DNA of 64,000 bases, taken from contig OY969926.1 in assembly GCA_963704645.1 (NCBI GenBank), forward strand, positions 1,124,491-1,188,490, written 5' to 3'. Positions 808-54,357 of this stretch are shown here, one piece after another. Each line of letters begins with the position of its first letter. The first letter of the stretch is position 1. The position numbers and the translations under genes were made by a program. The DNA comes from an uncultured bacterium (GTDB lineage Bacteria; Patescibacteriota; JACMRA01). The notes under the pieces are model-generated. The model made no database searches and had not been told where the DNA came from. It saw only the letters and a program-made list of their open reading frames with translations.

Positions 808-3800
808 ATGTCTAGTATAAACACTAAACCTAATTCTGGTATTGAATCTAAACCATTTCAAAAAAATACAAGTAATAAAAATATATTTAACTTTCTTAAA
901 AAGAAACCATCTAAAATATTACAATTTAGTTTTATTGCTCTAGTGTTGGGTATAATTAGTTTAGCAGCCTATTCAAGTTTAAATAATGGAAGAAATGTAG
1001 CTTTTGCAGCAAACGACCCAGTAATAAGCTTAGCCTTATCTCAAAAGTCTGGAACAGCTCCTTTTGACTCGGGAACTTGTACAACCGGTGGAACAAGCTA
1101 CACACCAGGACAAGATGTTTGTGATGCAGATAATGTTGTTAGAACTTTAGATACTGTGGAGTATACTTGGACGGTGTCTGTTACTAGCGACCCTGCAAAT
1201 AATGTTACTGTGGTTCAGACATTGCCTTCACAGATGATTTGGAATTCAGCTACTCTTCCTGTATTTTGTAGAACAGGAGCAGGATTTAACCCCCAATCTA
1301 GCTACAGTGGCCAGACACTTACTTGTAATCTAGGGTCTTTTACAGCCGGAACTTCTACTACAACAAATTATGACCAGATATTTGCTAAGGTTAAAGGAGA
1401 TAATCTTAACTCTACAAATATATTGACAGCACCAATTACTGCCAATGCTGATTCTAATGTTACAGCCGGTACTAGGACAGCTAACTCAACTTCTAATACC
1501 TTAAGTCCATTGGCAATTAGTGCATCACCTAGATATGATTTAGTAGTTTTTACAACCAACCCTTCTGAATATTCAATAAGAAATAATCCTCAAGGAGATG
1601 TAGGCATAGTTGTGTCTGGAGTTGCCTCAATTAAATTACAAGGAAAAGGTGTTGAAATGCCCCAACAACCGTTTAGTTTTAACTTGGGACTTGAATATCT
1701 AACACCTGTATCATCTGGCCAAACTTATTCAGGCGCTAAACTATATGATTGGGACACAAATTTGCTTGGTTGCTCAGGGACAGTAAACACTGTAGGCGCA
1801 GCGGATTATCCATCAAAAAATTTAAACTGCACCCAAACCGCACCTGGCGACACTGTATCCCTAATAGTAAATAATCAAGACTTGTCTGGTACAAATGCAC
1901 CTGCTACAATTTTCGCCAATGTTGTAAACTTTCCTAACATAGACATATTTTCACAGAAAGTTCGTTTTTGGATACCCAAGACTGATTTTGATAAATTATC
2001 TGGAACAAATTTTCAGTTTAGAGCTGTAGGATCAAATTTTAATCCAGTGAGTATTTCTGGTGGTTCAAATAATGGCACTGGAATAGAATCAAATACCTTG
2101 AACAACGTAGGGAGTGTTACAACTTTTGGATATAATCCAGCAAACCCTCTCTCTGGTGTATATCAGCTATCAGATTTTGGAGGCCCTTCAGGAGATCTTA
2201 GAATATCTTCTGGCTTTCAGGTTTACACACTAAATGAATTAGGTAGAATAAGTGTAACACTTCTCAGTGCTGGATTGTTTAACACAGAAAATGCTTTAGA
2301 TTTATGTACAGCAATTGACCCAACAATAGGTAGAGTGGCCGGGGATGTAGCTCTTCCAGCAGACCCTCAAAACATATATGCAGATTTTTCTAATTCAATA
2401 ATTGAGTATGCGAATGTGAATGGATTTCCAGCCACCTCTTGTGACGACATAGGAACAACATGGGTTACTTCCCCAAACATTTCAAGCATAGGAGGTTTTG
2501 ATAATGTCACTCGAGTAAGAATTAAAAATATAAACAGACTTTCTCCTGGTATTCAGACTATTTTAAATATACCTTTTAGGTTTAACAATTCAGTACCGAA
2601 CTTAGATGTTTTAGTCAGTCCTTATCAAACAATAATTAAATCTGCTACTGCCACAGCTGGGAATTGGCAAATAGTCGGCCAAAGTAGAGAAAAAATAGTT
2701 GTTAAAATGATACCAAGGGTAAATTTTTCTATTTTAAATGATACTCCAAACAACAATACAACTACAGTACTTTTGAACAATCCAGCTGGTGGTAGTAACA
2801 CTGTAAAATACTCTTTAAAATATGGTAGTTTTTCCCAAACTTCAAATACAACTGACACCACTAGTATTTCATACAGACTTAGACTTCCAAAAGGCCAAAT
2901 TTATTTAGTAGGTTCAAGTAGGCAAGGAGTGCCTACAGTTATGGCAGCCGGGCAGCCCGCTGAGACAAGTAATTTATTTGAACCAAGTAGTATAATTACT
3001 AATCTAGATGGAACTCAAGATATTCAATGGGACATATCTAATCTGCCTCTAAATAATCCTCAAAGTACTTATCCGAACTTGACTTTTAAAACTGTTGTTT
3101 CAGCTTTTACACCAAATGGCTCCATATTAAGTAATTCTGTAACTACTTTGAGTCCAGATTATTTCAATTCCACTGTAAGCCCTGCTTGTGGATCAGGCTG
3201 TTCATTACCCCAATCCACAATAACCGTCCAAAACCTATCCTCCTTCGCGGTAGAACAAGTTCCAAATAATCCACTGATTGAAAAGAATAAAGATCTTGGT
3301 TTCACACTTCGTTATGGTAATTTGGATACACTTAACCCTGTAGCTTCCTCAACGCATATTAATGTATTTCCTTTTAGCGCTCAAACACCACCACGCTCTC
3401 CTGCCACCTCCTTTACAGGTAATCTTGTTTTCAAAGGTTTAGTTGTAGCTCCAAATAGTGCTAGTTCAGACCCTGCTGTGGTTAATACTAATGACAACAT
3501 AACAGGTGGTGCTGGTACTGTTCAATATACTAAAGCAGTAAGTAGTAGTAGTATAGCTTCTGATCCATGTGATGTTAGTAACAATCCTGCTGGCTCGCCC
3601 GTAAACACTAATCCAAGATGTGCTGGTGTAGATGGTTCTGTAATTGGCACAGGAAGCACTATCTGGTGTGATGCTTCTCTAGATCCTGCTACTCCTAGTA
3701 TTAAAAACTACTCAATCTTAAACAATGCTGGAGTTTATTCTGGAACCAATGGAGCAAACTCTTCAACTTGTCCTACTACTCTTTCTGAAGTAACGGCTTT

Positions 3801-6654
3801 TAGATTAGTTACAGGCTCTCTTCCTATTGCTTCTGGTTCTGGTGGAACTATCTATGAAGTTAAAGCTAACTTTGGTACTAATGGAAATACCAATAGTAAT
3901 ATCTACACTAACTTATCTCAAGCCAGAGCTGAAGGTATTGCTACAGTTGCTACATCTAATAGTGCAGTAACCAGAGTAAGTAGTGGAAGTGTAAGTGGAA
4001 ATATATTTAATGATAAAGACAGCAATGGAATAAAAGATATTCTAGCTACTATTCCTAATCCAAACTTTGATCCAGGCCTACCAACTGATCCTATCTCCAA
4101 CCCTGAAACTATCACCAACCCAGAAAGTGACTTTGATCTTAGTGGGGTAAGCGTAGAACTAAGATACGGTACTGGTAATTTAGATGAAAACAACCTTCCA
4201 ATTGCTGAGGGAAGTTTAATTACAACTGTAACTACTGATTCAACTGGAAACTACACTTTCCCTAATATCTCAAGCGGTAACTACACCGTAGTTGTACTTC
4301 AAAACGGTATTCCTCTTTCTATTCAAACTACAGACAAAGACTTTGCATTAGACTTAGCTGCTAATCCAGGCTCTCCAAACAATACTCTTTTAGATAACTC
4401 AACGCCAATTACTTTAACATATACCAACGGAGTGGGTGTAAACAATATTTCTAATGCAAACTTTGGATACAACCAATACAGCAGACTTACTGGTAAACTT
4501 TATGCTGATACAAATAACAATGGAATTCAAGATGATGGAAGTGTAAATGGTAACCCAGCTGAACCAGACTTTAACTCTACCACTAATCTAATTCCAACTG
4601 GTACCAGTGTAGTTATTACTTCTACAACAACACCAAGTATTACTTACACTTTAACTACAGCAACATCTTCTACAGTTGTAAGTGGCTTTACTACAGGCAG
4701 CATTAACAACAGCGGTGTTGGTTCAAGTTTTGGATCCTTTTCTCAAGACTTACCTGTAGGAGAATATACCGTAACTGTTCTTACCGCCAATCCTAAATAC
4801 ATTGTTTCAGTTTCAACTCAGCTTGGTGATGCTGTTGGAGCTAACCCAAGTACACTAACTGTTAGCTTTGGTCAAACAAGAAGTTCTGGAAATGATGGAT
4901 TACACCTTGTTCAAATTCAAAATACAGATATTGACTCTATTGCTTGTAACCCAACTACAACAAATGTTGATACAACCACAGATTGTACTGTTACTTTAGT
5001 AGCCGGTAGAAACTTTAATGCTTTAAGTGGAAGTATAGACTTTAGAATAGGCGATGGAATTGCAGGACAAGGTGGAACTGTTAAAACCTGCTCTATTCCT
5101 GTTACTGGTAATGGAGGAACTGGCAGTGATGGAACTATTACAGTTACAACTTTAACTTGTACGGGTATAACTGTAGGAAGTAATATTGGTATTTTCCCAG
5201 CAAGTTTTAAAACAAGCAACGATACAACTTTCATTACAGGATCAAGCCCAACTAATATTACAGTAATTAATACAATTCAACCTAGTGATATTGACAGCAT
5301 AGTTTGCCAAAGTCCTAAAGTAGTTAATGCAACTACAGACTGTGTTGTTACTCTAACTGCCAATGCCGTAAGTAGTAACAGAGCCTTTAACAATTTAACT
5401 GGTAGTATTGCTCTTAAAATATCTGATGGTATACTTTTAACTTGTCCTAACTTTGCATCGTCTACTTCACCTTTTAACACTCTAAATTGTAATGCAGTTT
5501 CTGTAGGAAGCTTAATAAGTTCTGGAAATGGATATACTGTGAACTATGCTCTTAATGCTAGCACAACTACAACTGACGCACCTAATACTCCAAGTAAAAG
5601 CAATTATGTAGTGGTTAACAATACAATTCAACCTTCTAACCTATCTAGTGTGGTTTGTGATAGTCCTAAACTAATTAACCAAACAACAGACTGTGTAGTT
5701 ACTTTGGTAAGTGGAAATAGTTTTGCTAACTTATCTGGTGACATTAAAATTAAGATTAATGATGGACTTGAAACCTCATGCCCTGCCTTCTCTTCCTCAA
5801 TTACTCCGTTTAACACCTTAACATGTACAGTAATTCCAGTAGGAACTTTAATTGGAACTTTCAAACCGGCCTATAGTTTAAGTAGTTCAGCAGCAATAGA
5901 CACATTAAGTACTGATGTGGTTGTTTCTAATCCAGTTGATGAAACTATCTTGTCTAATCCATCAACTACAATTAATTGCCAAACAAATCAAATAAACTCT
6001 ATTACAACTTGCACTTTCACTCTTCCTACAAATACTACTTTAGCCTCAGGATTAAAACTAGGTATTGGAGATTCTACACCAGCAGGAACTTGTATAGTAA
6101 CTAATGCAACTACAGAAGAAGTAACTTGTACAGGTGTACCAACAGGATCTTTAATAGGGCAACAAATTATTAAAGTGCAGATAGCCTCTGCAGCTGTGGT
6201 AGATACAACTAGTACTGCACTAGTAACAGACACTCCTTGTTCAACAACCAATCCTTGTGCTATTCTAGATTCTAGTCTAACCTACAACCCAACCCAAGCC
6301 CTAGCCAAAAGATATGGAGCTTCTGGTTCTACAAACTCAGATAACCTAATACTAACTCTAAAAGATACAAGATTAGAACAATCTGGATTTACTACAACAT
6401 GTTCCATAAAATATAAATTCAGAACAGATACAAGCTACAGAATATTAACAACAAACTCTACCTACAATAATACTACAGGATGTACAGGAAACCTTCTTAA
6501 AGCAAATCAACTATTATTCAATGTAGACTTTGAAATAACTGCAATAACTACAAATACAACTACAAACACTACAAAGAACTATCTAATCTATTCCAACTAC
6601 GATTTCAAAGCTGGTTCTATTGGAGTTACTTCTATTGGAGGAAGTGGGTTGTAG
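808..6654 (+). CDS. giant membrane-anchored surface protein (1948 aa) with SdrD/Cna-B-like segments and Cys-containing tandem Ig-like repeats
   Basis: Single long ORF. Lys-rich N-tail followed by a TM helix (ILQFSFIALVLGIISLAAY). Thr/Ser/Asn-rich beta-type composition. Motifs GNIFNDKDSNGIKD, GKLYADTNNNGIQDD and GNYTFPNISSGNYTVVV. Four ~105-120-aa repeats (IQxxDIDSIxC..TTDCxVTL..) at about 4905-6230. Confidence 0.85.
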   Translation: MSSINTKPNSGIESKPFQKNTSNKNIFNFLKKKPSKILQFSFIALVLGIISLAAYSSLNNGRNVAFAANDPVISLALSQKSGTAPFDSGTCTTGGTSYTPGQDVCDADNVVRTLDTVEYTWTVSVTSDPANNVTVVQTLPSQMIWNSATLPVFCRTGAGFNPQSSYSGQTLTCNLGSFTAGTSTTTNYDQIFAKVKGDNLNSTNILTAPITANADSNVTAGTRTANSTSNTLSPLAISASPRYDLVVFTTNPSEYSIRNNPQGDVGIVVSGVASIKLQGKGVEMPQQPFSFNLGLEYLTPVSSGQTYSGAKLYDWDTNLLGCSGTVNTVGAADYPSKNLNCTQTAPGDTVSLIVNNQDLSGTNAPATIFANVVNFPNIDIFSQKVRFWIPKTDFDKLSGTNFQFRAVGSNFNPVSISGGSNNGTGIESNTLNNVGSVTTFGYNPANPLSGVYQLSDFGGPSGDLRISSGFQVYTLNELGRISVTLLSAGLFNTENALDLCTAIDPTIGRVAGDVALPADPQNIYADFSNSIIEYANVNGFPATSCDDIGTTWVTSPNISSIGGFDNVTRVRIKNINRLSPGIQTILNIPFRFNNSVPNLDVLVSPYQTIIKSATATAGNWQIVGQSREKIVVKMIPRVNFSILNDTPNNNTTTVLLNNPAGGSNTVKYSLKYGSFSQTSNTTDTTSISYRLRLPKGQIYLVGSSRQGVPTVMAAGQPAETSNLFEPSSIITNLDGTQDIQWDISNLPLNNPQSTYPNLTFKTVVSAFTPNGSILSNSVTTLSPDYFNSTVSPACGSGCSLPQSTITVQNLSSFAVEQVPNNPLIEKNKDLGFTLRYGNLDTLNPVASSTHINVFPFSAQTPPRSPATSFTGNLVFKGLVVAPNSASSDPAVVNTNDNITGGAGTVQYTKAVSSSSIASDPCDVSNNPAGSPVNTNPRCAGVDGSVIGTGSTIWCDASLDPATPSIKNYSILNNAGVYSGTNGANSSTCPTTLSEVTAFRLVTGSLPIASGSGGTIYEVKANFGTNGNTNSNIYTNLSQARAEGIATVATSNSAVTRVSSGSVSGNIFNDKDSNGIKDILATIPNPNFDPGLPTDPISNPETITNPESDFDLSGVSVELRYGTGNLDENNLPIAEGSLITTVTTDSTGNYTFPNISSGNYTVVVLQNGIPLSIQTTDKDFALDLAANPGSPNNTLLDNSTPITLTYTNGVGVNNISNANFGYNQYSRLTGKLYADTNNNGIQDDGSVNGNPAEPDFNSTTNLIPTGTSVVITSTTTPSITYTLTTATSSTVVSGFTTGSINNSGVGSSFGSFSQDLPVGEYTVTVLTANPKYIVSVSTQLGDAVGANPSTLTVSFGQTRSSGNDGLHLVQIQNTDIDSIACNPTTTNVDTTTDCTVTLVAGRNFNALSGSIDFRIGDGIAGQGGTVKTCSIPVTGNGGTGSDGTITVTTLTCTGITVGSNIGIFPASFKTSNDTTFITGSSPTNITVINTIQPSDIDSIVCQSPKVVNATTDCVVTLTANAVSSNRAFNNLTGSIALKISDGILLTCPNFASSTSPFNTLNCNAVSVGSLISSGNGYTVNYALNASTTTTDAPNTPSKSNYVVVNNTIQPSNLSSVVCDSPKLINQTTDCVVTLVSGNSFANLSGDIKIKINDGLETSCPAFSSSITPFNTLTCTVIPVGTLIGTFKPAYSLSSSAAIDTLSTDVVVSNPVDETILSNPSTTINCQTNQINSITTCTFTLPTNTTLASGLKLGIGDSTPAGTCIVTNATTEEVTCTGVPTGSLIGQQIIKVQIASAAVVDTTSTALVTDTPCSTTNPCAILDSSLTYNPTQALAKRYGASGSTNSDNLILTLKDTRLEQSGFTTTCSIKYKFRTDTSYRILTTNSTYNNTTGCTGNLLKANQLLFNVDFEITAITTNTTTNTTKNYLIYSNYDFKAGSIGVTSIGGSGL

Positions 6655-6713
6655 GGGGTAATCCAAAAATGAAATTGAGGTATAAAGGTAATCCCTTAAC
6701 TCCACAACGCTGT

Positions 6714-6736
6714 GTAGGGGAGATACCTTATCTCCC
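6714..6736 (+). repeat. GTAG-hairpin (REP-like) unit GTAGGGGAGATA-CCT-TATCTCCC
   Basis: GTAG followed by a perfect 8-bp stem (6718-6725 / 6729-6736). Confidence 0.6.
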
Positions 6737-6865
6737 TGGGTAAATGAAGGGAAAGGAGGGGAGGTAAAGGACAAACCACCAATCGTAACTTCCTCGTTTC
6801 CTCACCCCCCCACACACCCAAACTACCCCCAAGCCTTTGGCTTGACCCCTTCGGGCAAACATGTC

Positions 6866-6884
6866 GGTTGAAACAAGTTCAACC
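6866..6884. repeat. hairpin GGTTGAA-ACAAG-TTCAACC (same loop and inner stem as hairpins at 9571 and 10584)
   Basis: Perfect 7-bp stem. The ACAAG loop and TGAA/TTCA inner stem are shared with the other two copies. The outer 3 bp are changed in a compensatory way. Confidence 0.55.
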
Positions 6885-7015
6885 TGCGCCAGTTTACTTA
6901 CCAGGGGTACTTTTTATGTAGTAGCTTTCCCAGCACCCCTATCTAGGCACGACTGTCCCGTTCTTGATAATTTTTACCAAAACCTAATTAAGAAGAAATG
7001 ATAGGTAGGCAACCC

Positions 7016-8392
7016 CTACTTCAACAACTTCAAAACTTCTTGTTCGCGAATTGTAGTAAACTTAATTGTTGGGTTTAGGTTCATTTTTAAAGCGTTGGCG
7101 GTTTTGGTTCTAGTTTCAATTTGGGTTGGTGTACGTAAGTTTCCGCTTAAAGTTAGTCTTCCCGAAAAAATTGGTAAAGTACTACTTTTAAACCAGTTTT
7201 TTACATCTAAATTAAATGTGGAAGAAAGAATAGCAACCATTATGGCCAAGTCTAAATTTTCGTCTGGGTTTGAATTTGGCCAGCCAGAAATTTGTAAGTA
7301 AACGTCTCTTCCAGTTAAGTCTAGGTTTAAATATTTTTCGCAAATAGCCAAAATTGTATTTAGCTTGGCCGTTTTTATTCCCAAAGCTTCTCTTCGTCCA
7401 AAAAAGTTTCCTGCGCCTGCCGTTTTAGCTGGAGTTACCAAAGCTTGAATTTCAACAACCAAAGGCAAATCTCCGTCTAAAGCCAAGCCGTAAGCAACGC
7501 CCATTCCACTTTCAGTGTTACCAAGCAAGGCCAAACTTGGGTTAGTAATAACTTCCAAACCAGACGCACCCATATTCATAAGCATGGTTGGTGTGGTTGG
7601 GCCGTACCTATGTTTATTAAAACGTAAACTTCTAAAATTGCCCACATTGGCGTTTTCTAAAATTAAAACAGAATCTACTAAGTGCTCTAGGGTTTTAGGG
7701 CCTGCAATTTGTCCTTCTTTAGTAACGTGCCCAATTATTATAATTGCCATGTTTTTATTCTTACTTAAAGCCAATAAATGACTGGCTAAAGTTGTTACCT
7801 GACTAACCGAACCAGGAGCAGTTTCAAGGTTGGCTGTAAAAATTGTTTGAATAGAATCTACCACCAAAACATCGAAATTAAAACTGGCCAATTTACCTTC
7901 CATTTCTTCATAGGAATTGGTTTGCAAAATGTTTAAAGTTTCTGGAATACCAAGTCGTTTAGCCCGTTTAGCAATTTCCAAGGCCGATTCTTCTGCAGTT
8001 AAGTAGCAAACTTGTAAATTAGAATTTAGCTTATTTTGTAGAAGCGAACGGACCAGCTGTAAAGCCAAAGTGCTTTTACCAAGACCAGGTTCACCCGCTA
8101 ACAAAGTTAAACTAGCTGGCACTAAACCACCACCCCAAAATTGGTTTAGCATTGCCGCTTCAAACTTAAACAAAGGTGATAAATTTACATCTTCTAACCT
8201 AGAATACAATTTTTCAAGTTTTGTAATTTGATTATTCTGAATAGACGGTTGCTTTTTGCTGGTAGCATTTATTGGCGAAACTGTTTCTTCCACAAAACTA
8301 TTCCAACTGTCACAACTGGGGCATTTACCAACCCACTTAGCAGTTTTAAAATTACAGTTAGAACAAACAAAAACACTTTTAGCTAAGGCCAT
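7016..8392 (-). CDS. radA: DNA repair protein RadA/Sms
   Basis: N-terminal Zn-finger CSNCNFKTAKWVGKCPSCDSWNSF. Walker A GEPGLGKST. KNRFG-like box RFNKHRYG. Lon-protease-like C-terminal domain. 458 aa. Confidence 0.95.
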   Translation of the reverse strand: MALAKSVFVCSNCNFKTAKWVGKCPSCDSWNSFVEETVSPINATSKKQPSIQNNQITKLEKLYSRLEDVNLSPLFKFEAAMLNQFWGGGLVPASLTLLAGEPGLGKSTLALQLVRSLLQNKLNSNLQVCYLTAEESALEIAKRAKRLGIPETLNILQTNSYEEMEGKLASFNFDVLVVDSIQTIFTANLETAPGSVSQVTTLASHLLALSKNKNMAIIIIGHVTKEGQIAGPKTLEHLVDSVLILENANVGNFRSLRFNKHRYGPTTPTMLMNMGASGLEVITNPSLALLGNTESGMGVAYGLALDGDLPLVVEIQALVTPAKTAGAGNFFGRREALGIKTAKLNTILAICEKYLNLDLTGRDVYLQISGWPNSNPDENLDLAIMVAILSSTFNLDVKNWFKSSTLPIFSGRLTLSGNLRTPTQIETRTKTANALKMNLNPTIKFTTIREQEVLKLLK

Positions 8393-8489
8393 ATTTTAAT
8401 GTGAGATGGTAAGTGGGAAATGTAAAGAGTTGCTTTGGAAGATTAATTTGAAAGTTTATTAAGCCTAGACAAATGAGTACTGTCACCCT

Positions 8490-9569
8490 TGTATATGTCA
8501 TAAATTTCAGTGACAGAATTTAAATCTTCTTTTAGATTATTTCTGTTAAATTTTTAACAACATACATTCTAACATAATATGCGTTTAAATGATAATACTT
8601 TAACCAAGAATTACCTTAGACATATGAAACAATTAGTTCAAGAATATGAATTAATTAAAACAAGGAAACATCCTAGATATGTATTTGTAAATGAATTCTA
8701 CAAAGCAAATAATATAACTAGACAAAACTTCATCAAATATTACAATAGGTATAAATTAGTCTCTATGGATAGTAGTTTAATTCCAAAGAAAAGAGGAAGA
8801 AAGTTTGGTAGTTTAAAAAGTATTCCCTTTATACAGAATAAGATTATTGAACTTAGAAACCAAGGATTTGGTAGATATGAGATACACGATTTCCTTTTAC
8901 CTAAGTATGGTAAATATACTCCTTCACCTACGACTATTTACAATATACTATTAAAGAAAGGATTGAATAGATTAGATCCAAGAGTAATTCAAACTAACAA
9001 AAGAAGAATCATTAAAGATAAAGCAGGAGAATTAGGCCATATGGATTGCCACAGACTAGCTAAAGGAATACTGGAGGGTGAAAAGAATGAATACTTTCTA
9101 CTAAGCTTAACAGATGACTTTACTAGAATAGTTATGACCATACTAATACCTAATCTACAAGCTCTAACAGTTATGCTTTATACTCAAAGATTATTAGCAG
9201 TATTCAATAGATGTTACAACATAGATTTTCAAAGTATATTAACAGACAATGGACCCGAATTTGGAAGGAAAGAAACAAAAGAAGAAAACAAACAAAACCA
9301 TCCATTTGAAAGATTACTGTTAGAATACAACATTAAGCATAAGTACACTAGAGCCTACAGGCCACAAACCAATGGTAAAGTAGAAAGATTCTGGAGAAGT
9401 TTAGAGGAAGAATTACTTAGAGAGCAAGTATACCCAGATAAAGAAAGTTTAGAAGAAGAATTATTTGAATATTGTTGCTACTTCAACCATATTAGAAGAC
9501 ATCAAGGTATTGGTAATATTACTCCCTATGAGAAACTTAATTCTGTCACTGAATAAGTTGACATATACA
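8490..9569 (+). mobile_element. IS481-family-like insertion sequence (about 1.08 kb, single transposase ORF)
   Basis: Imperfect terminal inverted repeats TGTATATGTCA...CAGTGACAGAATT (8490-8520) and AATTCTGTCACTG...TGACATATACA (9539-9569). TGT termini. One DDE ORF fills the element. Confidence 0.8.
8579..9556 (+). CDS. IS481/IS3-type DDE transposase (integrase core domain)
   Basis: HTH-like N-terminus. DDE triad context HMDCHRL, LTDNGPEFG and RPQTNGKVERFWRSL. 325 aa. Confidence 0.9.
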   Translation: MRLNDNTLTKNYLRHMKQLVQEYELIKTRKHPRYVFVNEFYKANNITRQNFIKYYNRYKLVSMDSSLIPKKRGRKFGSLKSIPFIQNKIIELRNQGFGRYEIHDFLLPKYGKYTPSPTTIYNILLKKGLNRLDPRVIQTNKRRIIKDKAGELGHMDCHRLAKGILEGEKNEYFLLSLTDDFTRIVMTILIPNLQALTVMLYTQRLLAVFNRCYNIDFQSILTDNGPEFGRKETKEENKQNHPFERLLLEYNIKHKYTRAYRPQTNGKVERFWRSLEEELLREQVYPDKESLEEELFEYCCYFNHIRRHQGIGNITPYEKLNSVTE

Positions 9570-9570
9570 G

Positions 9571-9589
9571 CCCTGAACTTGTTTCAGGG
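9571..9589. repeat. hairpin CCCTGAA-CTTGT-TTCAGGG abutting the IS right end
   Basis: Perfect 7-bp stem. With its flank (to 9595) it is the reverse complement of 10578-10602 apart from 1 mismatch. Confidence 0.7.
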
Positions 9590-10583: not shown

Positions 10584-10602
10584 CCCTGAAACAAGTTCAG
10601 GG
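10584..10602. repeat. hairpin CCCTGAA-ACAAG-TTCAGGG, inverted copy of 9571-9589
   Basis: Read directly. Together with 9571-9589 it brackets the 1-kb two-cassette segment. Confidence 0.7.
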
Positions 10603-14248: not shown

Positions 14249-14644
14249 ATGGAGAATTTTATAAAAAACTTTACAAACTGGTTTAGTTTAAAACCTGAGT
14301 TAGAATTCTTAAAAAGTTCTAAAAATTTTAATGAAAGAGAAATTTGGTGGACACATTTAGGCAGCAACTTAGGTTTTGAAATTGATGGTAAAACCTTACA
14401 ATACACCAGGCCAGCACTGATACTTAAAAAAATTTCTACCCAAACAGCATTAATACTTCCGCTTACCTCAAAAGACAAGAATGGAAGTTGGTACATTCCA
14501 ATAATTGTAGATGAAAAAGAAGGAAGAGTAATTCTTTCTCAAAGCCGAACTATAGATAGTAAAAGATTAAAATCCAGACTTGTGACTATTAATGAAAGAG
14601 AATTTAAAAATATAAAAGAAAAATTTATTCAATTTATTGGGTAA
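14249..14644 (+). CDS. PemK/MazF-family toxin-like protein with N-terminal extension, no adjacent antitoxin ORF
   Basis: REIWWTHLGSNLGFEIDGK...RPALIL...LPLTS...ILSQSRTIDSKRL matches the MazF/PemK fold pattern. Paralog of 19210-19605. Confidence 0.75.
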   Translation: MENFIKNFTNWFSLKPELEFLKSSKNFNEREIWWTHLGSNLGFEIDGKTLQYTRPALILKKISTQTALILPLTSKDKNGSWYIPIIVDEKEGRVILSQSRTIDSKRLKSRLVTINEREFKNIKEKFIQFIG

Positions 14645-19169: not shown

Positions 19170-19218
19170 ACAAATTGCCGTTAGGTACGACCTCTCAGAA
19201 ATGAGAGGGTTAATTTTT
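19170..19218 (+). ncRNA. candidate ~50-nt convergent small RNA (second copy)
   Basis: Predicted only. Hairpin CCTCTCA-GAAA-TGAGAGG (19191-19208) followed by a T5 run (19214-19218) that overlaps the last codons of 19210-19605. Confidence 0.3.
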
Positions 19219-19605
19219 GCCCAAAATAATCTGAGACATTTTTCTTTTAAGAATCAATAATTCGTTATCACTAATTTTTCCAAGTTTGTAGCTTAATCTT
19301 TGTACATCTATAGCTTTCATCTGAGAAAGTAAAACTGATATATTTTTCTGACGCATTTTTAAATTGAAATAATATTTATTATCTTTAATTTTAGAACTTG
19401 TTGGCAAACCATAGAATAGTTTATGGTTGAACTTTCGTATTATCACAACTGGACGTAAAAACTGGTCACCTTTTCCGTTTTCCTCATGACCTATATTTTC
19501 TCCTAAATGACACCACCATATCTCCGCTTCTCTAAAAACCGGGTATTTTTCATTTTCATGTAATTTTGGTTTTAACTTAAACCAGTCCAAAAAGTTTTTA
19601 ATCAT
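19210..19605 (-). CDS. PemK/MazF-family toxin-like protein with N-terminal extension, no adjacent antitoxin ORF
   Basis: AEIWWCHLGENIGHEENGK...RPVVII...LPTSS...LLSQMKAIDVQRL. Roughly one-third identical by eye to 14249-14644. Confidence 0.75.
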   Translation of the reverse strand: MIKNFLDWFKLKPKLHENEKYPVFREAEIWWCHLGENIGHEENGKGDQFLRPVVIIRKFNHKLFYGLPTSSKIKDNKYYFNLKMRQKNISVLLSQMKAIDVQRLSYKLGKISDNELLILKRKMSQIILGKN

Positions 19606-26954: not shown

Positions 26955-27698
26955 CTATAATTTAAAACTATCAAACCCTTCGTATTTGTCAAAAGATAGC
27001 AGATATAAACTTTTGAGGGTGTTTTTTGAATATTCTTTTAATTCCATTAGCACAGTATTTATACTAGCTCTATCTGAGTTTTCCAATACAGCATCGTCTA
27101 TTATTATAGGTAATTTCTCACATAATTTTTTAAAAGCAAATTTATCCCCAGTTACAATTTCATAAAATTTATCAATGGAAACTCTTCTAATTCTATCGTT
27201 TCTCATTTGCCCACTATCAACGCTTATTACCCAAGGCGAGTTTTGGCTTTTTTTGGCTATCACTTCAACTAACATGCAAGTTGCATTAGAATTTTGCAAT
27301 AGTTTATTTTGCATAGAAATATAAATTTTTTGCGCAGACCCAGAGTTCATTGTGTTATGCTTATTTTTTATTTCTACAAAGATATTGTCCTTTTCATTCA
27401 CAATATCAAAACCTTTTTTTGGAACAGTCCAGTCTTTTGAAATATACTTGAATATATTTTGATGAAAATAACCAATTAAGTTACTGTTAGTTTTATCTAC
27501 TTGTCTTATTACTTCGTTTTGAATACCTTCTTCTATTGTAATACCATATATTTTTGAATCGAAAGTCATTTTTATTGGATCAACTAAGTTTTTGTTGAAC
27601 GCCTTTAAATTGCTTTCAAATCTATAGCTTTCAACAGTTTCTTTGACGTGCTTGAATATATTTTCATCGGAAATAAAGCCTAAATTATATTTATTCAT
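26955..27698 (-). CDS. putative type II restriction endonuclease (partner of the adjacent C5-methyltransferase)
   Basis: Its start overlaps the methyltransferase stop by 8 nt on the same strand. The call rests on context only; I do not recognise the family with certainty. Confidence 0.55.
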   Translation of the reverse strand: MNKYNLGFISDENIFKHVKETVESYRFESNLKAFNKNLVDPIKMTFDSKIYGITIEEGIQNEVIRQVDKTNSNLIGYFHQNIFKYISKDWTVPKKGFDIVNEKDNIFVEIKNKHNTMNSGSAQKIYISMQNKLLQNSNATCMLVEVIAKKSQNSPWVISVDSGQMRNDRIRRVSIDKFYEIVTGDKFAFKKLCEKLPIIIDDAVLENSDRASINTVLMELKEYSKNTLKSLYLLSFDKYEGFDSFKL

Positions 27699-29100
27699 AA
27701 TTGTGTGTAATTAACGGTACTAAAATTTTAACCAACTCTCTAACTATATTTACCCCAAGGGCATTTCCTAGTAATCCCATGCTTTTTATGTAGTTACTGG
27801 GTAAAATAAATGTGTCTGGGAAACCTTGTATTCTAGCCCCTTCTCTAATTTTTATTTTTCTAAATTTTTTCTTATTATATATTTCTTTAATAAAATAATT
27901 TTTTTTATCCTTAATCTCAGATGGAATGTCAATTTCAGAAATATAGTCTCTAACGCCTGTTTTAGTTAAAGTTGAAAACACATGAGAAGAAGGCAAATAA
28001 ACTCTATAAATACTGTTTATACCTGATGAATTTTTAGAATTTACAAAGTCATATTTTTCACCTCTTTTAATTAAAATATTTTTGGAAACAAGACTATTTA
28101 AATTATCAATCAAACTTTCTAAGGCGCTTCCTTCTATTTTTAAAATATCTTGTATATTTTGAACACTTAGCGGATTACCGTCTTTATCTCCATATATTTT
28201 CCTTCTTCTATTTTTTAGGACAGCAAAACAAATTTGTATTTCCTCCTCACTTGTATCAATTAAATCCCAGGAGTGAATGCTATGCTTCCCATTTCTGGTG
28301 TCGCAAAATGTGAAGAAATTTTCATTGTTAACTAAGAAGGATATATTAAACGAATTTTTAAGGTTATTATTGTTTATTACATTTTGGCTGTTAATACTAA
28401 CAGTATTTTCGATAACAGAGCTTAAGTTGGGTAATTGTTTATAACTTTCTGGATAGTGGAACTCTTTTTTTATATCTTTAGAAATTCCAACAATAAATAT
28501 CCTTTCTCTACTTTGCGGCAAACCATAATCAAAAGTGTTTAGTACTTTATATTTAACATTGTAACCAATATCTTCAAAAGACTTAATTATTAATTTTAAA
28601 CTTTCTTTATTTCTTGGATCGGCCAAACCTTTTACATTCTCAAATATAAAGGCCTTGGGTTGAGAATGCTCAACAAATTTTATAGTATCAAACCATAAAG
28701 CCCCTCTTGGGTCATCAAACCCTTGTCTTTTTCCAGCAACAGACCAAGACTGACACGGAACCCCGCCCGTTATTATATCAGCTTTTGGTATATCTGAGAT
28801 TTTAGTTATATCGCCTAAAAATATTTCTGAGTCTGTTTTAAAATTTTTTCTATAAACATCAATTGCAGTAGAATCAATTTCAGAAAAAGCAACACATCGC
28901 CCACCCATCTCTTCCAAAGGAATTCTAAAACCTCCAATTCCTGCATAAAGATCAATGAATGTAAAAAGTTTTTGGCTTTCTTTTTTTTCATCTTCTAGAT
29001 TTCTATCAAGTTCATAAGTGAAACCCAAAGTATCTTGCTTATAACTCTTTGATTGAATTTTCAGTTTTTCATCTATTTTAGTTTTTACAACACTAGGCAT
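27691..29100 (-). CDS. DNA (cytosine-5)-methyltransferase
   Basis: Motif I LYAGIGGF, IV GGVPCQSWS, VI ENVKGL, VIII QSRERIFIVG, IX RIQGFPDTF, X GNALGVNIV. A long target-recognition insert lies between VIII and IX. Confidence 0.95.
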   Translation of the reverse strand: MPSVVKTKIDEKLKIQSKSYKQDTLGFTYELDRNLEDEKKESQKLFTFIDLYAGIGGFRIPLEEMGGRCVAFSEIDSTAIDVYRKNFKTDSEIFLGDITKISDIPKADIITGGVPCQSWSVAGKRQGFDDPRGALWFDTIKFVEHSQPKAFIFENVKGLADPRNKESLKLIIKSFEDIGYNVKYKVLNTFDYGLPQSRERIFIVGISKDIKKEFHYPESYKQLPNLSSVIENTVSINSQNVINNNNLKNSFNISFLVNNENFFTFCDTRNGKHSIHSWDLIDTSEEEIQICFAVLKNRRRKIYGDKDGNPLSVQNIQDILKIEGSALESLIDNLNSLVSKNILIKRGEKYDFVNSKNSSGINSIYRVYLPSSHVFSTLTKTGVRDYISEIDIPSEIKDKKNYFIKEIYNKKKFRKIKIREGARIQGFPDTFILPSNYIKSMGLLGNALGVNIVRELVKILVPLITHNYE

Positions 29101-31377: not shown

Positions 31378-31455
31378 GGGTATGTAGCTCAGCCTGGTTA
31401 GAGCACAGATCTTATAAGTCTGCGGTCGGTGGTTCAAATCCACCCATACCCACCA
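31378..31455 (+). tRNA. tRNA-Ile with anticodon UAU, CCA encoded
   Basis: Cloverleaf folded by hand. Acceptor GGGTATG/CATACCC. D arm GCTC..GAGC. Anticodon stem CAGAT/GTCTG with loop CTTATAA. T arm GGTGG-TTCAAAT-CCACC. Discriminator A followed by CCA. Confidence 0.9.
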
Positions 31456-33589: not shown

Positions 33590-34234
33590 CTACTCTATAG
33601 TCTTAGGGCTAGGAATTCTTTCCACAATAGCTTGTAATAAACGTTCTACTCCCATTCCTGTTTTTCCGCTAACGTGTAAAATTTGTGACCTATTATAGCC
33701 TAAAATTCTTTCAATTTCTTCACTTCTAGCTGGAATATCGGCGTTGGGTAAATCTATTTTGTTTAAAACTGGAATAATTTTTAAGTCTAATTCCATAGCA
33801 GAATACAAATTAGCCAAAGTTTGTGCCTGAATCCCCTGAGTTGCATCTACCACCAAAATTGCCCCTTCACAAGCAGCTAAAGACCGAGAAACTTCATAGG
33901 CAAAATCTACATGGCCAGGGGTATCAATTAAATTTAAAATAAATTTCTGGTTAACAAAATTTGTAACATCTAACCCAGTTTCCAAATTTCTTAGTTCAAT
34001 TTCTTCTTTAGAAAAAGGAGTAGAGCCAGGGTAAATATAATCCATTCTTACGGGTTGCAGCTTAATAGTAATTCCACGCTCTCGTTCTAAATCCATTTTA
34101 TCTAGGGTTTGTTCCTTCATATCACGCTTGGTAACGGTTCCTGTAATTTCCATAAGTCTATCGGCTAAAGTGCTTTTACCATGGTCAATATGGGCAATGA
34201 TGCAAAAGTTACGAATATTTTTAAGCTCGGTCAT
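33590..34234 (-). CDS. lepA: LepA/EF4 translational GTPase reduced to the G domain (214 aa; may be a gene remnant)
   Basis: [40 protein letters not shown] and SGKTG are all intact. The ORF stops right after the IPSPK junction, where full-length EF4 (~600 aa) continues into domain II. Confidence 0.85.
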
Positions 34235-39703: not shown

Positions 39704-40414
39704 TCAAGTATTTATAAAACCAAGTTTGTTGGCAATGGGAGCTCTTGGATTTAAAATATCTAGTTTCCAACTTCCAGGATTATTAAATATATACTCCCGA
39801 ATTCTGGAAAGGTCTGCGTCATTCCGAATAACTCGTTCATAAAAAGATTTCTGCCAAAATGAAGGAAAACTCGTAGGGGAACGCTTGCCGTTCCCGTGAT
39901 ACTTAATATTTCGATAGACTTTATTCTCATCAACCATGCTAATTTCGTTGCTTGTTAAAATTCTATACTCTTTATGGAACCGCAAGGGTTCCCCTACAAA
40001 TTGCTTATTTATATGATACCATGATATTGATTTAAATTTGGATATTATATCCGATAAATTTGTTTCCTGTGTTGTTATTTTAGAAATTGGTTTATCTAAA
40101 AATGTCATGATTCCATGAATATGATTGGGCATAATTACAAAATCCTCCATTATTATGTTTTCAAATATGTCAGATAAACTTAGCCAAATATCAATAACAA
40201 TAGAACCAATTTCCGTAGGGACGAATTTTAATTCGCGTTGGGGCACTCCCAAGACAGGAGAAACAAGTTTCTCCCCTACGCCGTGATTTATAAAATTAAC
40301 TACCTCCCCAAAAATACATCTTTTGTCTTGCACACATATTGTTATGAAGAAAGAATTATTGTTTGAATAAATGTTTTTATCTGGGAATCTTATTTTCTTA
40401 CGGTTGTTGCTCAT
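39704..40414 (-). CDS. HUH/Y1 transposase of the IS200-like / REP-associated tyrosine transposase (RAYT) type
   Basis: HUH motif in VIMPNHIHGIM. C-terminal block FWQKSFYERVIRNDADLSRIREYIFNNP. Two extra segments are encoded by GTAG-hairpin doublets. Confidence 0.8.
   Translation of the reverse strand: MSNNRKKIRFPDKNIYSNNNSFFITICVQDKRCIFGEVVNFINHGVGEKLVSPVLGVPQRELKFVPTEIGSIVIDIWLSLSDIFENIIMEDFVIMPNHIHGIMTFLDKPISKITTQETNLSDIISKFKSISWYHINKQFVGEPLRFHKEYRILTSNEISMVDENKVYRNIKYHGNGKRSPTSFPSFWQKSFYERVIRNDADLSRIREYIFNNPGSWKLDILNPRAPIANKLGFINT
39873..39997. repeat. REPIN-like inverted doublet inside the RAYT ORF
   Basis: GTAGGGGAACG-CTTGC-CGTTCCC (39873-39895, + orientation) faces GTAGGGGAACC-CTTGC-GGTTCC (39997-39976, - orientation). 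Confidence 0.65.
40215..40279. repeat. second GTAG-hairpin inverted doublet inside the RAYT ORF
   Basis: GTAGGGACGAATT-TT-AATTCG (40215-40235, +) faces GTAGGGGAGAAAC-TT-GTTTCTCC (40279-40257, -). Confidence 0.55.
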
Positions 40415-45769: not shown

Positions 45770-47308
45770 TTATGTTGTCACTGGCAGGGGTTTGTAATAA
45801 TTAGCGAAATAATTTTCATCTTTCCCTTGATTAACAGCTTTACTACTTACAAAACTGAATAAAATTATTAAAGCCATTGGCCACAAATGCATGTCATTTT
45901 TTTCTAAATTTATCACTGTTAAAGGTTTTTTAACTTCATTTGTCTGGATATTCGCTTGTGGAAAATTTTGATAATCAAGAGTTGAATTGATAATCGCATC
46001 AGTTTTAAAGTATTGTGATTTTACGACATCTACCGATTGCCTTGGTTGCAAATTACTTGATAAATTTGGTGGTAGTTTTATCAGCTCCTTTGAGGACTTA
46101 ATATACACATCTATGTTAGATAGTTTTGTTTCTAAGCTTGGCGAAACTAAACTAGGCTGATTAATTTTAACTTTTTCATGGAAACTTTGTTGAACAACTG
46201 GAAGTGAGTTTTTTGGAACTGAAATAGCTTGACTAATTTCTTTATTTTGGTAGTTTTGACTCGGAGCAACACTCGGAGCAACACTCGGAGCAACACTCGG
46301 AGCAACACTCGGAGCAACACTCGGAGCAACACTCGGAGCAACACTCGGAGCAACACTCGGAGCAACACTCGGAGCAACACTCGGAGCAACACTCGGAGCA
46401 ACACTCGGAGCAACACTCGGAGCAACACTCGGAGCAACACTCGGAGCAACACTCGGAGCAACACTCGGAGCAACACTCGGAGCAACACTCGGAGCAACAC
46501 TCGGAGCAACACTCGGAGCAACACTCGGAGCAACACTCGGAGCAACACTCGGAGCAACACTCGGAGCAACACTCGGAGCAACACTCGGAGCAACACTCGG
46601 AGCAACACTCGGAGCAACACTCGGAGCAACACTCGGAGCAACTTGAGTTTGTAAATCAGAATTATCTAAATTAACAGCTAAAGCACTTCCAAATTTGGGT
46701 GTGCCATAATTACCTGAAAAATATTCTTCATTGGAAATTTCGTATTTTAAAGTTGACGGGTTGTATTGAACACTAAACTTACTTCCATAAGCTAAATCGA
46801 CATCTTTTTCTAAATTTTTTATTTTATCTTCATTTAAACTAAACTCAGAAACTTTTTGCCCTGCAGAGTTAATTAAACTAGCTTGTATATTTCTCTGGCC
46901 TACAGTATTAGAACTTACTCTTAAAACTTTACCACTAACGCCGTCTGCTTCTATGTTAGCACTAGCAAGAGTTGAAATTAAACCATTATAACGATTTCGA
47001 ACCAGGTAGTTGCTCTTAGCCTGAATGAAAGTATTGGGTGGAAATTTAAGGTTGTTAGTTGCTTCCTGAGACTGGTGAAACCGAAGTTGCCACAAGCCCA
47101 CATCTATTGCCTTGTTATTAGGGTTTGTAATTTCAATCCACTTGTCATAGCTGCATAGTTTACAATTAGACCTAGTGCTTCCAGCGAAATTAACTTCACT
47201 AATATAAACATTTTCTTCGGCTAAACTTATTACAGAAAAAACTGGCAAAAACCAAACTGACATTAAGCTTAAGCTGAAAAAAACAATGTAAATATATCTG
47301 CAGGGCAT
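45770..47308 (-). CDS. secreted lamin-tail-domain (LTD) protein with a (VAPS)x32 linker and a C-terminal TM segment
   Basis: LTD block VYISEVNFAGS...YDKWIEITNPNNKAIDVGLWQLRF. Tandem tetrapeptide array. C-terminal hydrophobic segment LWPMALIILFSFVSS. Confidence 0.8.
   Translation of the reverse strand: MPCRYIYIVFFSLSLMSVWFLPVFSVISLAEENVYISEVNFAGSTRSNCKLCSYDKWIEITNPNNKAIDVGLWQLRFHQSQEATNNLKFPPNTFIQAKSNYLVRNRYNGLISTLASANIEADGVSGKVLRVSSNTVGQRNIQASLINSAGQKVSEFSLNEDKIKNLEKDVDLAYGSKFSVQYNPSTLKYEISNEEYFSGNYGTPKFGSALAVNLDNSDLQTQVAPSVAPSVAPSVAPSVAPSVAPSVAPSVAPSVAPSVAPSVAPSVAPSVAPSVAPSVAPSVAPSVAPSVAPSVAPSVAPSVAPSVAPSVAPSVAPSVAPSVAPSVAPSVAPSVAPSVAPSVAPSVAPSQNYQNKEISQAISVPKNSLPVVQQSFHEKVKINQPSLVSPSLETKLSNIDVYIKSSKELIKLPPNLSSNLQPRQSVDVVKSQYFKTDAIINSTLDYQNFPQANIQTNEVKKPLTVINLEKNDMHLWPMALIILFSFVSSKAVNQGKDENYFANYYKPLPVTT
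46259..46642. repeat. perfect tandem repeat, 32 x 12 bp (ACTCGGAGCAAC)
   Basis: Counted directly. 384 bp with no variant unit. It stays in frame within CDS 45770-47308. Confidence 0.95.
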
Positions 47309-54320: not shown

Positions 54321-54357
54321 CTGTCACTGAAATTTATGACATATACAAAGGTGACAG
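54321..54357 (-). repeat. solo copy of the IS481-like element left end
   Basis: 37 nt that are the reverse complement of 8480-8516 with one mismatch. Similarity stops on both sides. Confidence 0.8.

Follow-up and report, generated by a model that had tools for sequence, protein, structure and literature searches.

A GC-rich island between convergent genes of an uncultured low-GC bacterium is probably a mosaic of REP-type palindromic units

What occupies the GC-rich gap between two convergent genes in an otherwise AT-rich bacterial genome? The stretch analyzed here (the window) is 64 kb of the 1.27-Mb contig OY969926.1 of an uncultured bacterium, in which a 369-bp spacer (6651-7019), referred to as the island, separates an open reading frame (ORF) of 1948 amino acids (808..6654, plus strand) from radA (7016..8392, minus strand). 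The GC content of the island is about 50%, compared with 34% for the genome. In an earlier note the island had been viewed either as one large insertion resembling a REPIN (doublet of repetitive extragenic palindromes, REPs) or a miniature inverted-repeat transposable element (MITE), or as a structured non-coding RNA (ncRNA) downstream of radA. In our view it is probably a mosaic of REP-type palindromic units that was built up in the convergent-gene spacer and resembles the bacterial interspersed mosaic elements (BIMEs). This reading is based on the REP motif GTAGNGGNGA, present at 8 sites in the window against 0.62 expected, on genes for REP-associated tyrosine transposases (RAYTs), on a REP doublet with the same ends as the island and on the lack of an island at orthologous loci, as well as on the mosaic islands of relatives, the compensatory changes in their hairpins, the partial multi-copy status of the island and a shared CTTG loop.

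The genome carries a family of GTAG-tagged REPs and at least two genes for RAYT (Y1/HUH) transposases, and the island contains units of REP type. Features by which REPs are recognized are present: a palindromic stem-loop, an unpaired GTAG, multiple copies in the 64 kb, units of the same kind in related contigs and a RAYT gene in the genome. The GTAG/CTAC tag accompanies 6 of the 18 perfect GC-rich hairpins in the window, including that at 6714-6736. The units of the island and the transposase gene are listed below; loci compared with the window are numbered L001-L016, and H module denotes a hairpin shared with some of them.

6651-6657, plus strand: GTAGGGG head (REP-type GTAG tag) containing the TAG stop 6652-6654, with no canonical stem downstream.
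6714-6736, plus strand: canonical GTAG-tagged REP composed of GTAG, an 8-bp stem and a 3-nt loop, GGGAGATA-CCT-TATCTCCC (hairpin scan).
6738-6830, unstranded: long imperfect hairpin with a G-rich arm (6738-6764) and a C-rich arm (6792-6819) (fold energy).
6805-6830, minus strand: G-quadruplex-type (G4) motif GGGGGTAGTTTGGGTGTGTGGGGGGG (pattern G3+N1-7 x4).
6821-6913, plus strand: segment probably repeated elsewhere in the genome (homology to L013 and the end of a unitig).
6836-6909, minus strand: H module, an extended imperfect hairpin of 74 nt (alignment A4, RNAalifold, covariance model R1).
6849-6896, minus strand: core of the H module, 48 nt, consisting of a GCAG tag, a 7-bp stem, the loop CTTGT, the stem and CGACATG (comparisons of filled and empty sites).
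7005-7019, minus strand: hairpin GTAGG-GGTTG-CCTAC followed by a T-rich tail, with a GTAGGGG head holding the radA TAG stop 7016-7018 (terminator-like scan).
39704-40414, minus strand: RAYT gene (NCBIfam, Pfam, names of homologues, motifs).

The unit at 6714-6736 belongs to the GTAGNGGNGA family. Its GTAG (6714-6717) is unpaired and lies immediately 5′ of the stem, and a near variant, GTAGGGGAGAC..GTCTCCC, was found at L008:3637-3659, not within any island. The three perfect hairpins described before were found again, 6718-6736 and 6830-6844 by the hairpin scan and 6866-6884 by direct reading, and the helix described beside them is real (6903-6911 with 6932-6940, 89% complementary). The head at 6651-6657, devoid of a canonical stem, is interpreted as a REP remnant or tag, and the hairpin at 7005-7019 is possibly an internally deleted REP (compare GTAGGGGAACGCTTGCCGTTCCC at 39873). 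The tag of the H core, GCAG, is one base away from GTAG, its 7-bp stem occupies 6866-6884 (GGTTGAA-ACAAG-TTCAACC), and its loop has the CTTG that forms the loop in 5 of 13 REPs aligned with MAFFT, an alignment out of register at the stems that gave no covariance model for the REP. The long hairpin at 6738-6830 has a fold energy of -24.6 kcal/mol on the plus strand and -36.3 kcal/mol on the minus strand; its arms resemble by eye, and not significantly in local alignment, the GGGTTAGAAGCG...GGGAAG units that flank the islands of relatives (L008/L009 termini).

The RAYT assignment of the ORF at 39704-40414 relies on several lines of evidence. It matches NCBIfam NF047646 with E=4.6e-13, a score below the curated cut-off plausibly due to REPs inserted in frame, and Pfam Y1_Tnp with E=0.0018; a weak match covers the catalytic-tyrosine region of the TnpA-REP structure 4ER8. 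The HxH and Y-I-x-x-N-P motifs are conserved, the homologues go by the name 'REP element-mobilizing transposase RayT', and the same 1.27-Mb contig encodes a second copy (P0131). Judged by these sequence features, the encoded protein is the likely enzyme behind the REP family. An inverted REP doublet of 125 bp (39873-39997) inside the gene starts with GTAGGGG and ends with CCCCTAC, the end signature of the island. The doublet encodes FVGEP...GKRSPT, a segment common to P0131 and P0134 and missing from compact RAYTs of 150-170 amino acids. Another in-frame REP (40255-40279, GTAGGGGAGAAACTTGTTTCTCC) adds about 15 amino acids to the RAYT and is missing from the 81%-identical paralogue P0131.

The composition of the island and its ends agreed largely with the first description. 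The rise to about 50% GC was confirmed (0.52 at 6700-6899 and 0.475 at 6800-6999, against 0.29-0.36 in the flanks). The strand asymmetry, described as C-rich on the plus strand, was found across the right two thirds (GC skew -0.19 to -0.35), whereas the left third is G-rich on that strand (+0.24 at 6600-6799); the G-rich left third and the C-rich remainder are the two arms of one long hairpin. Small ORFs of 44 and 63 amino acids lie inside the island, and looking for further copies through them returned no record. The inverted GTAGGGG ends (6651-6657 on the plus strand, 7013-7019 on the minus strand) do contain the TAG stops of both genes, and the motif is enriched: 11 copies occur in the window, 3.2 were expected and none of 100 shuffles reached 11. 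The form G-TAG-GGG was seen at 3 of the 17 TAG stops in the window (those of the 1948-aa gene, radA and a truncated lepA-like ORF), compared with fewer than about 0.2 by our own estimate from base composition. In known systems the termini of GTAG-tagged REPs often supply the TAG stop of flanking ORFs, and REPs also occur within ORFs (PMC3733652). REPs are short repeats, able to form hairpins, that are known as selfish or domesticated DNA of bacteria.

Stop codon usage in the window is itself peculiar. Among the 38 ORFs of at least 110 amino acids, 20 end with TAA, 17 with TAG and one with TGA, so that TGA is nearly unused and TAG unusually frequent for a genome of 34% GC. The LepA/EF4-like GTPase ORF (33590-34234, minus strand) ends after 214 amino acids at a TAG within GTAGGGG, and the remaining part of the gene is missing.

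If the island were a single 369-bp REPIN or MITE that had inserted whole, it would have given both genes new stops, as the earlier note proposed. Two observations favor such an origin: the inverted GTAGGGG/CCCCTAC termini are identical to those of the 125-bp doublet in the RAYT gene, and in the predicted folds of both strands a terminal 7-bp helix closes the entire island. The history of the two stop codons, followed in relatives, argues against it.

On the radA side, homologues with 92, 82, 83 and 80% identity could be placed on contigs, and more distant matches carry Patescibacteria labels. The island is missing downstream of orthologous radA (80-92% identical) in relatives with spacers of 128 nt (L002), 70 nt (L004) and 5 nt (L005). 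In L002, whose radA is 92% identical, the upstream Nramp gene is kept and the 128-nt spacer is followed by an unrelated gene. The five radA proteins differ by no more than one residue in where they end, including that of L002, which has no large island, and therefore the radA stop is ancestral; L002 radA ends in the same AAG-TAG as in the window, but CTGCC comes next. Since the island is missing from a 92%-identical relative, it is also unlikely to be an RNA gene under selection. In the window an insertion sequence (IS; 8480-9569) that encodes an rve-type integrase (8579-9556) has inserted itself between radA and Nramp; L002 lacks it. Its inverted repeats are 31-37 nt long, and a solo inverted-repeat copy lies at 54321-54357.

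The other neighbor belongs to a family of surface-protein genes. The C-terminal domain of the 1948-aa protein gave no match in Pfam. Its last 120 or so residues are 100% identical in P0121 and P0125, the two paralogues aligned from the same 1.27-Mb contig, P0122-P0124 match this region at similar scores, and the family has at least five further members on that contig. The identical C-termini suggest that gene conversion may be ongoing in the family. The same domain was found at 60-72% identity in L006, in L007-L010 (JGI metagenomes) and in L011-L016, six copies within one metagenome-assembled genome (MAG) from Lake Mendota that bears the unverified label 'Bdellovibrionales bacterium'. Every member has ...GG(S/T)GL as its C-terminus and TAA or TAG as its stop, which makes the stop of the 1948-aa gene ancestral as well. 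The ends of the island are thus REP heads coinciding with TAG stops at ancestral positions, and the hypothesis that an insertion had re-terminated both genes did not hold. Downstream of the paralogues in relatives the following was found.

In L008/L007 the paralogue stop is immediately followed by a GC-rich island (about 370 nt). Islands also occur in L009 (about 350 nt), L012 (about 265 nt) and L013 (about 170 nt, interrupted by an IS). L014 and L016 have stubs (about 70 and about 110 nt, respectively), L006 has a 164-nt spacer without detectable similarity to the island, and L011 and L015 have no island.

These homologous islands are shuffled mosaics. The L009 island is the reverse complement of the L008 island (82% identity over 258 nt). 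L012 and L008 represent the same locus, with rplS downstream, in the same orientation, and one module, the H core, is placed differently inside the two islands; L014 and L009 likewise share a locus, at which L014 has 70 nt and L009 has 350 nt. Because length, orientation and module position vary, we consider the islands of the relatives plastic, with no single conserved architecture.

The H module is the best-conserved of these units. Six copies are known (window, L008, L009, L012 and two in L013), all adjoining paralogues of the 1948-aa gene. The window segment 6821-6910/6913 is 83.5% identical over 91 nt to L013:4052-4142, the homology ending at 6910, and the H core aligns with L008, L009, L012 and the second L013 copy. 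The RNAalifold consensus for alignment A4 has 21 pairs, 7 of them with double-sided changes, and the inner stem occurs as GGTTGAA/TTCAACC, GTTCGAA/TTCGAAC and GTTCGGG/CCCGAAC; the hairpin is kept by compensatory changes, that is, under selection for the hairpin. Across 137 kb, covariance model R1, which scored 81 bits at the window copy, detected only these six, every one in an island next to the gene family, and the H-core pattern had no match in viral contigs.

The window has the H core within the loop of another hairpin, ACCCCT..AGGGGT, which acts as its host, and three comparisons of filled and empty sites show this kind of position. The window has ACCCCTGGTAAG[core]GGGGT where L015:4085-4130 has the host hairpin without the core, ACCCCTGGTAAGGGGT; L008 has CTCCCTTTG[core]AAGGGAG where L012 has CTCCCTTTACAAGGGAG; and reciprocally L012 has CCCCATTG[core]TAAAGGG where L008 has CCCCATTGTAAAGGGG. 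A core of 44-50 nt therefore sits in the loop of host hairpins, and no consistent target-site duplication was found at these sites. The empty site in L015 is part of a 299-aa RNase HII ORF of a related MAG (L015:3940-4839) with in-frame GC-rich palindromic units (...VPLVRGQAEGLGVVKVLGV...), which recall the in-frame palindromic elements of Rickettsia and REP-tagged repair genes (PMC3733652). Another hairpin, CCCTGAA-CTTGT-TTCAGGG, has the 13-mer TGAACTTGTTTCA in common with the island core. It was found in the window at 9571-9589 and 10584-10602, at L005:1-27, at L008:3664-3692 and in IMG/VR loci L017-L045; the two window copies are inverted and enclose roughly 1 kb of 335-bp tandem repeats adjoining the IS. 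Its canonical unit GTCA-TCCTGAACTTGTTTCAGGA-TC was present in 29 stretches of IMG/VR viral contigs with a GC content of 28-71% and is a very widespread palindromic unit.

Copy number in the strain could be approached through a Logan unitig of the same strain from another sample (L001), which matches the window exactly at 6884-8508. On the IS side the unitig ends after 29 nt of the inverted repeat beginning at 8480, a repeat with a second copy at 54321; read in the same way, its other end implies a repeat boundary near 6913, where the homology to L013 (to 6910) also ends. The unitig reaches 132 nt into the island, whereas about 30 nt would be expected if the whole island were repeated. From these ends, the left and central parts of the island are probably present elsewhere in the genome, and the approximately 100 nt adjoining radA would be unique in the strain, which argues against a single 369-bp mobile unit.

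With the ancestral stops and the unique right-hand part, a single insertion is unlikely. No target-site duplication and no second copy of the whole island were found in the window, and relatives gain and lose modules one by one, not one whole unit. The architecture of a REPIN is not seen: the terminal tags are 369 bp apart and have no matching stems, the internal units are dissimilar and the right 100 nt or so is unique. A MITE was rejected as the terminal inverted repeat has only 7 nt, there is no target-site duplication, no second copy exists in the window or in relatives and the right part is unique. The earlier REPIN/MITE-like idea thus named the right class, given the GTAG-tagged REPs, the RAYT and the shared end signature, but the island is not one large inserted element.

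The second proposal, a structured ncRNA, had been accompanied by a faint likeness to bacterial RNase P RNA. The recommended Rfam comparison (RNase P, tmRNA, 6S) was run and no family matched. When all 4227 Rfam models were applied to the window, only a tRNA-Ile passed the gathering score, and at 6500-7200 with lax filters and E<=10 only chance miRNA- and lncRNA-like matches to the long hairpin at 6736-6821 were obtained; eight related loci gave no Rfam match. The covariance models of bacterial RNase P RNA, which include the P4 helix with CR-I (GGAAAGUCC) and CR-V, had no match at gathering score or, on 6500-7200 with lax filters, at E<=10, and the likeness is not supported. No Rfam match was obtained for tmRNA, 6S or SRP RNA, and ARAGORN reported only the tRNA-Ile in the window and no tmRNA. 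This tRNA-Ile (31378-31455, plus strand) has a UAU anticodon, uncommon in bacteria.

A new structured ncRNA not present in Rfam, transcribed from the minus strand downstream of radA or belonging to the 3′ untranslated region of either gene, would still be compatible with some features. The minus strand folds better than shuffled sequences, though the z-scores are modest on both strands (-2.67 minus, -2.06 plus), the H module has its seven pairs with double-sided changes, and in the decayed L013 copy two A-C mismatches of the plus strand become G-U pairs on the minus strand. We nevertheless hold such an RNA to be decidedly unlikely: besides the negative Rfam and ARAGORN results and the lack of an island downstream of the 92%-identical radA, the modules occur in either orientation relative to the neighboring gene and in differing orders, 0-370 nt are found at equivalent loci, and covariation is limited to simple hairpins, as REPs would give. 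A UUCG tetraloop considered as a signal of a plus-strand RNA is not conserved, the L013 copy having TCAG. No RNA family fits, and we infer that the island holds no dedicated RNA gene; the ncRNA alternative is not supported, for want of an Rfam match at E<=10, of conservation at the radA locus and of a constant module orientation.

The proximity of the islands to one gene family raises the question of recombination. In Neisseria the pilE G4 element is a G-quadruplex-type motif adjoining a multi-copy surface-protein system with shared cassettes, and the likeness is a positional analogy only. A cis-acting element of G4 and hairpin DNA beside the 3′ cassette could promote exchange or inversion in the surface-protein family, and thereby antigenic or phase variation. 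The motif GGGGGTAGTTTGGGTGTGTGGGGGGG is the sole G3+N1-7 x4 match in the window and L001-L016, and relaxed G4 motifs, with loops of at most 12, are confined to the homologous GC-rich module tracts of L007, L008, L012 and L013, so that these and all six H modules lie beside family members; the C-termini are identical in P0121 and P0125, with P0122-P0124 matching at similar scores, and the island is inverted between L008 and L009, flanked by inverted repeats. Against this, the island is missing beside some paralogues (L011, L015) and no more than a stub beside others (L014, L016), the opposite orientation in L008 and L009 concerns two separate loci and need not mean an inversion switch, the Pfam scan of window ORFs of at least 110 amino acids found no site-specific recombinase nearby, and the G4 motif competes with a strong duplex hairpin. 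Such a role is very unlikely, its small probability being owed to the H module found only beside one gene family and to the only strict G4 motif lying in the island. There is an equally slender chance that the islands are recombination modules and not passive REP debris, with RAYT co-opted as a nuclease for antigenic variation in a tiny-genome bacterium.

Other identities were examined and set aside. The window hairpin contains GTTGAAC (GTTRRRY), as in an integron attC site, but the L008/L012 variants depart from this pattern and an R/L box pair is lacking. A diversity-generating retroelement, considered in view of the A-rich 3′ end of the large gene, was rejected as the Pfam-scanned ORFs of at least 110 amino acids include no reverse transcriptase. 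An invertible promoter is not favored, the window island lying between convergent genes and the L008 rplS promoter outside the island. BLAST of the island gave no match to phage genomes and only a 31-nt chance match to plasmids; an exact 22-mer of the island had no match in JGI metagenomes, nor had a gene-end 29-mer in species-representative genomes.

Several points weigh against a REP mosaic. The island has just one textbook REP (6714-6736), both terminal GTAGGGG heads lack a proper stem, and the tag of the H core is GCAG or ACAG, not GTAG. That all six H modules adjoin one gene family is unexpected for a freely dispersing REP, and the copy numbers are extrapolated from 64 kb and one unitig break. 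About half of the island (6655-6713, 6738-6820, 6911-7004) had no detectable homologue by local alignment in accessible DNA, which would also suit an idiosyncratic spacer without repeat or functional identity; given the motif enrichment, the homologous module with compensatory changes in three other genomes and the cognate transposase, such a spacer is extremely unlikely.

For the mosaic of REP-type units we propose that the RAYT produced or mobilized its components in the form of single-stranded DNA hairpins, or that they arose by decay of such units, with preferred targets next to GTAG and in hairpin loops. At present both convergent transcripts would carry stable 3′-terminal stem-loops, which may cause termination and protect against 3′ exonucleases, and the island probably acts as a bidirectional 3′-end hairpin barrier or terminator. 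Roles of REPs in transcription termination and mRNA stabilization have been hypothesized (PMC3733652). On the minus strand, 7019-7005 has a 5-bp stem and CTATCATTTC and would be a weak terminator-like site (1 terminator-scan match, 0.9 expected); on the plus strand, at 6904-6917, a composite stem closing at 6910 is followed by TTTTTAT, a T-run missing in the L013 copy.

The BIMEs of E. coli are clusters outside genes, frequently in convergent-gene spacers, in which REPs of alternating orientation are interspersed with further short motifs. The composition of the islands likewise varies between loci and strains, but there is no sequence relationship, and the regular Y/Z REP alternation and the IHF/gyrase sites by which BIME types are defined are not evident, no dedicated search for them having been made. 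Another close system is that of the GTAG-tagged REPs/REPINs with RAYTs (Di Nocera et al. 2013, PMC3733652; Bertels & Rainey, PMC3337134; 4ER8). Shared with it are short GC-rich stem-loops with an unpaired 5′ GTAG, many mostly extragenic copies, the use of the TAG of the tag as a stop, occasional in-frame copies within genes, a RAYT in the same genome and the inverted doublet (39873-39997). Several features differ: the host lineage is uncultured, low in GC and represented by a 1.27-Mb contig, and it is not a proteobacterium; the island has 369 bp and is heterogeneous, whereas REPINs are 70-120-bp doublets of two like REPs; its best-conserved unit carries GCAG/ACAG and adjoins one gene family only; and REPs of the window lie in frame inside the RAYT gene itself. 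As with the Rickettsia palindromic elements (PMC3733652), palindromes occur in a small genome and in frame in essential genes (here RAYT, and RNase HII in the relative), but those elements are CGTC-tagged, while the tag here is GTAG/GCAG and the island is intergenic.

Elsewhere the window contains two MazF/PemK toxin genes (14249-14644 and 19210-19605), each with a CCTCCCA/CCTCTCA hairpin directly 3′, an Eco47II-type restriction-modification pair at 26955-29100, and about 34 tandem 12-nt units (46151-46690) within the gene of a PT-repeat / lamin-tail-domain protein (45770-47308).

The analysis removes a false lead, as the island hides no RNase P-like or other large ncRNA, and it carries a warning for annotation: in an AT-rich genome, a GC-rich island that folds strongly need not be an RNA gene. 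It places a GTAG-REP/RAYT system in an uncultured bacterium whose low-GC genome measures about 1.3 Mb, a setting from which repeats would normally be expected to have been purged. For the biology of REPs and RAYTs the system is of interest because units sit nested in hairpin loops, both filled and empty sites being observable, because REPs lie in frame in the RAYT and in the RNase HII of a relative, and because REP heads recur as stop codons.

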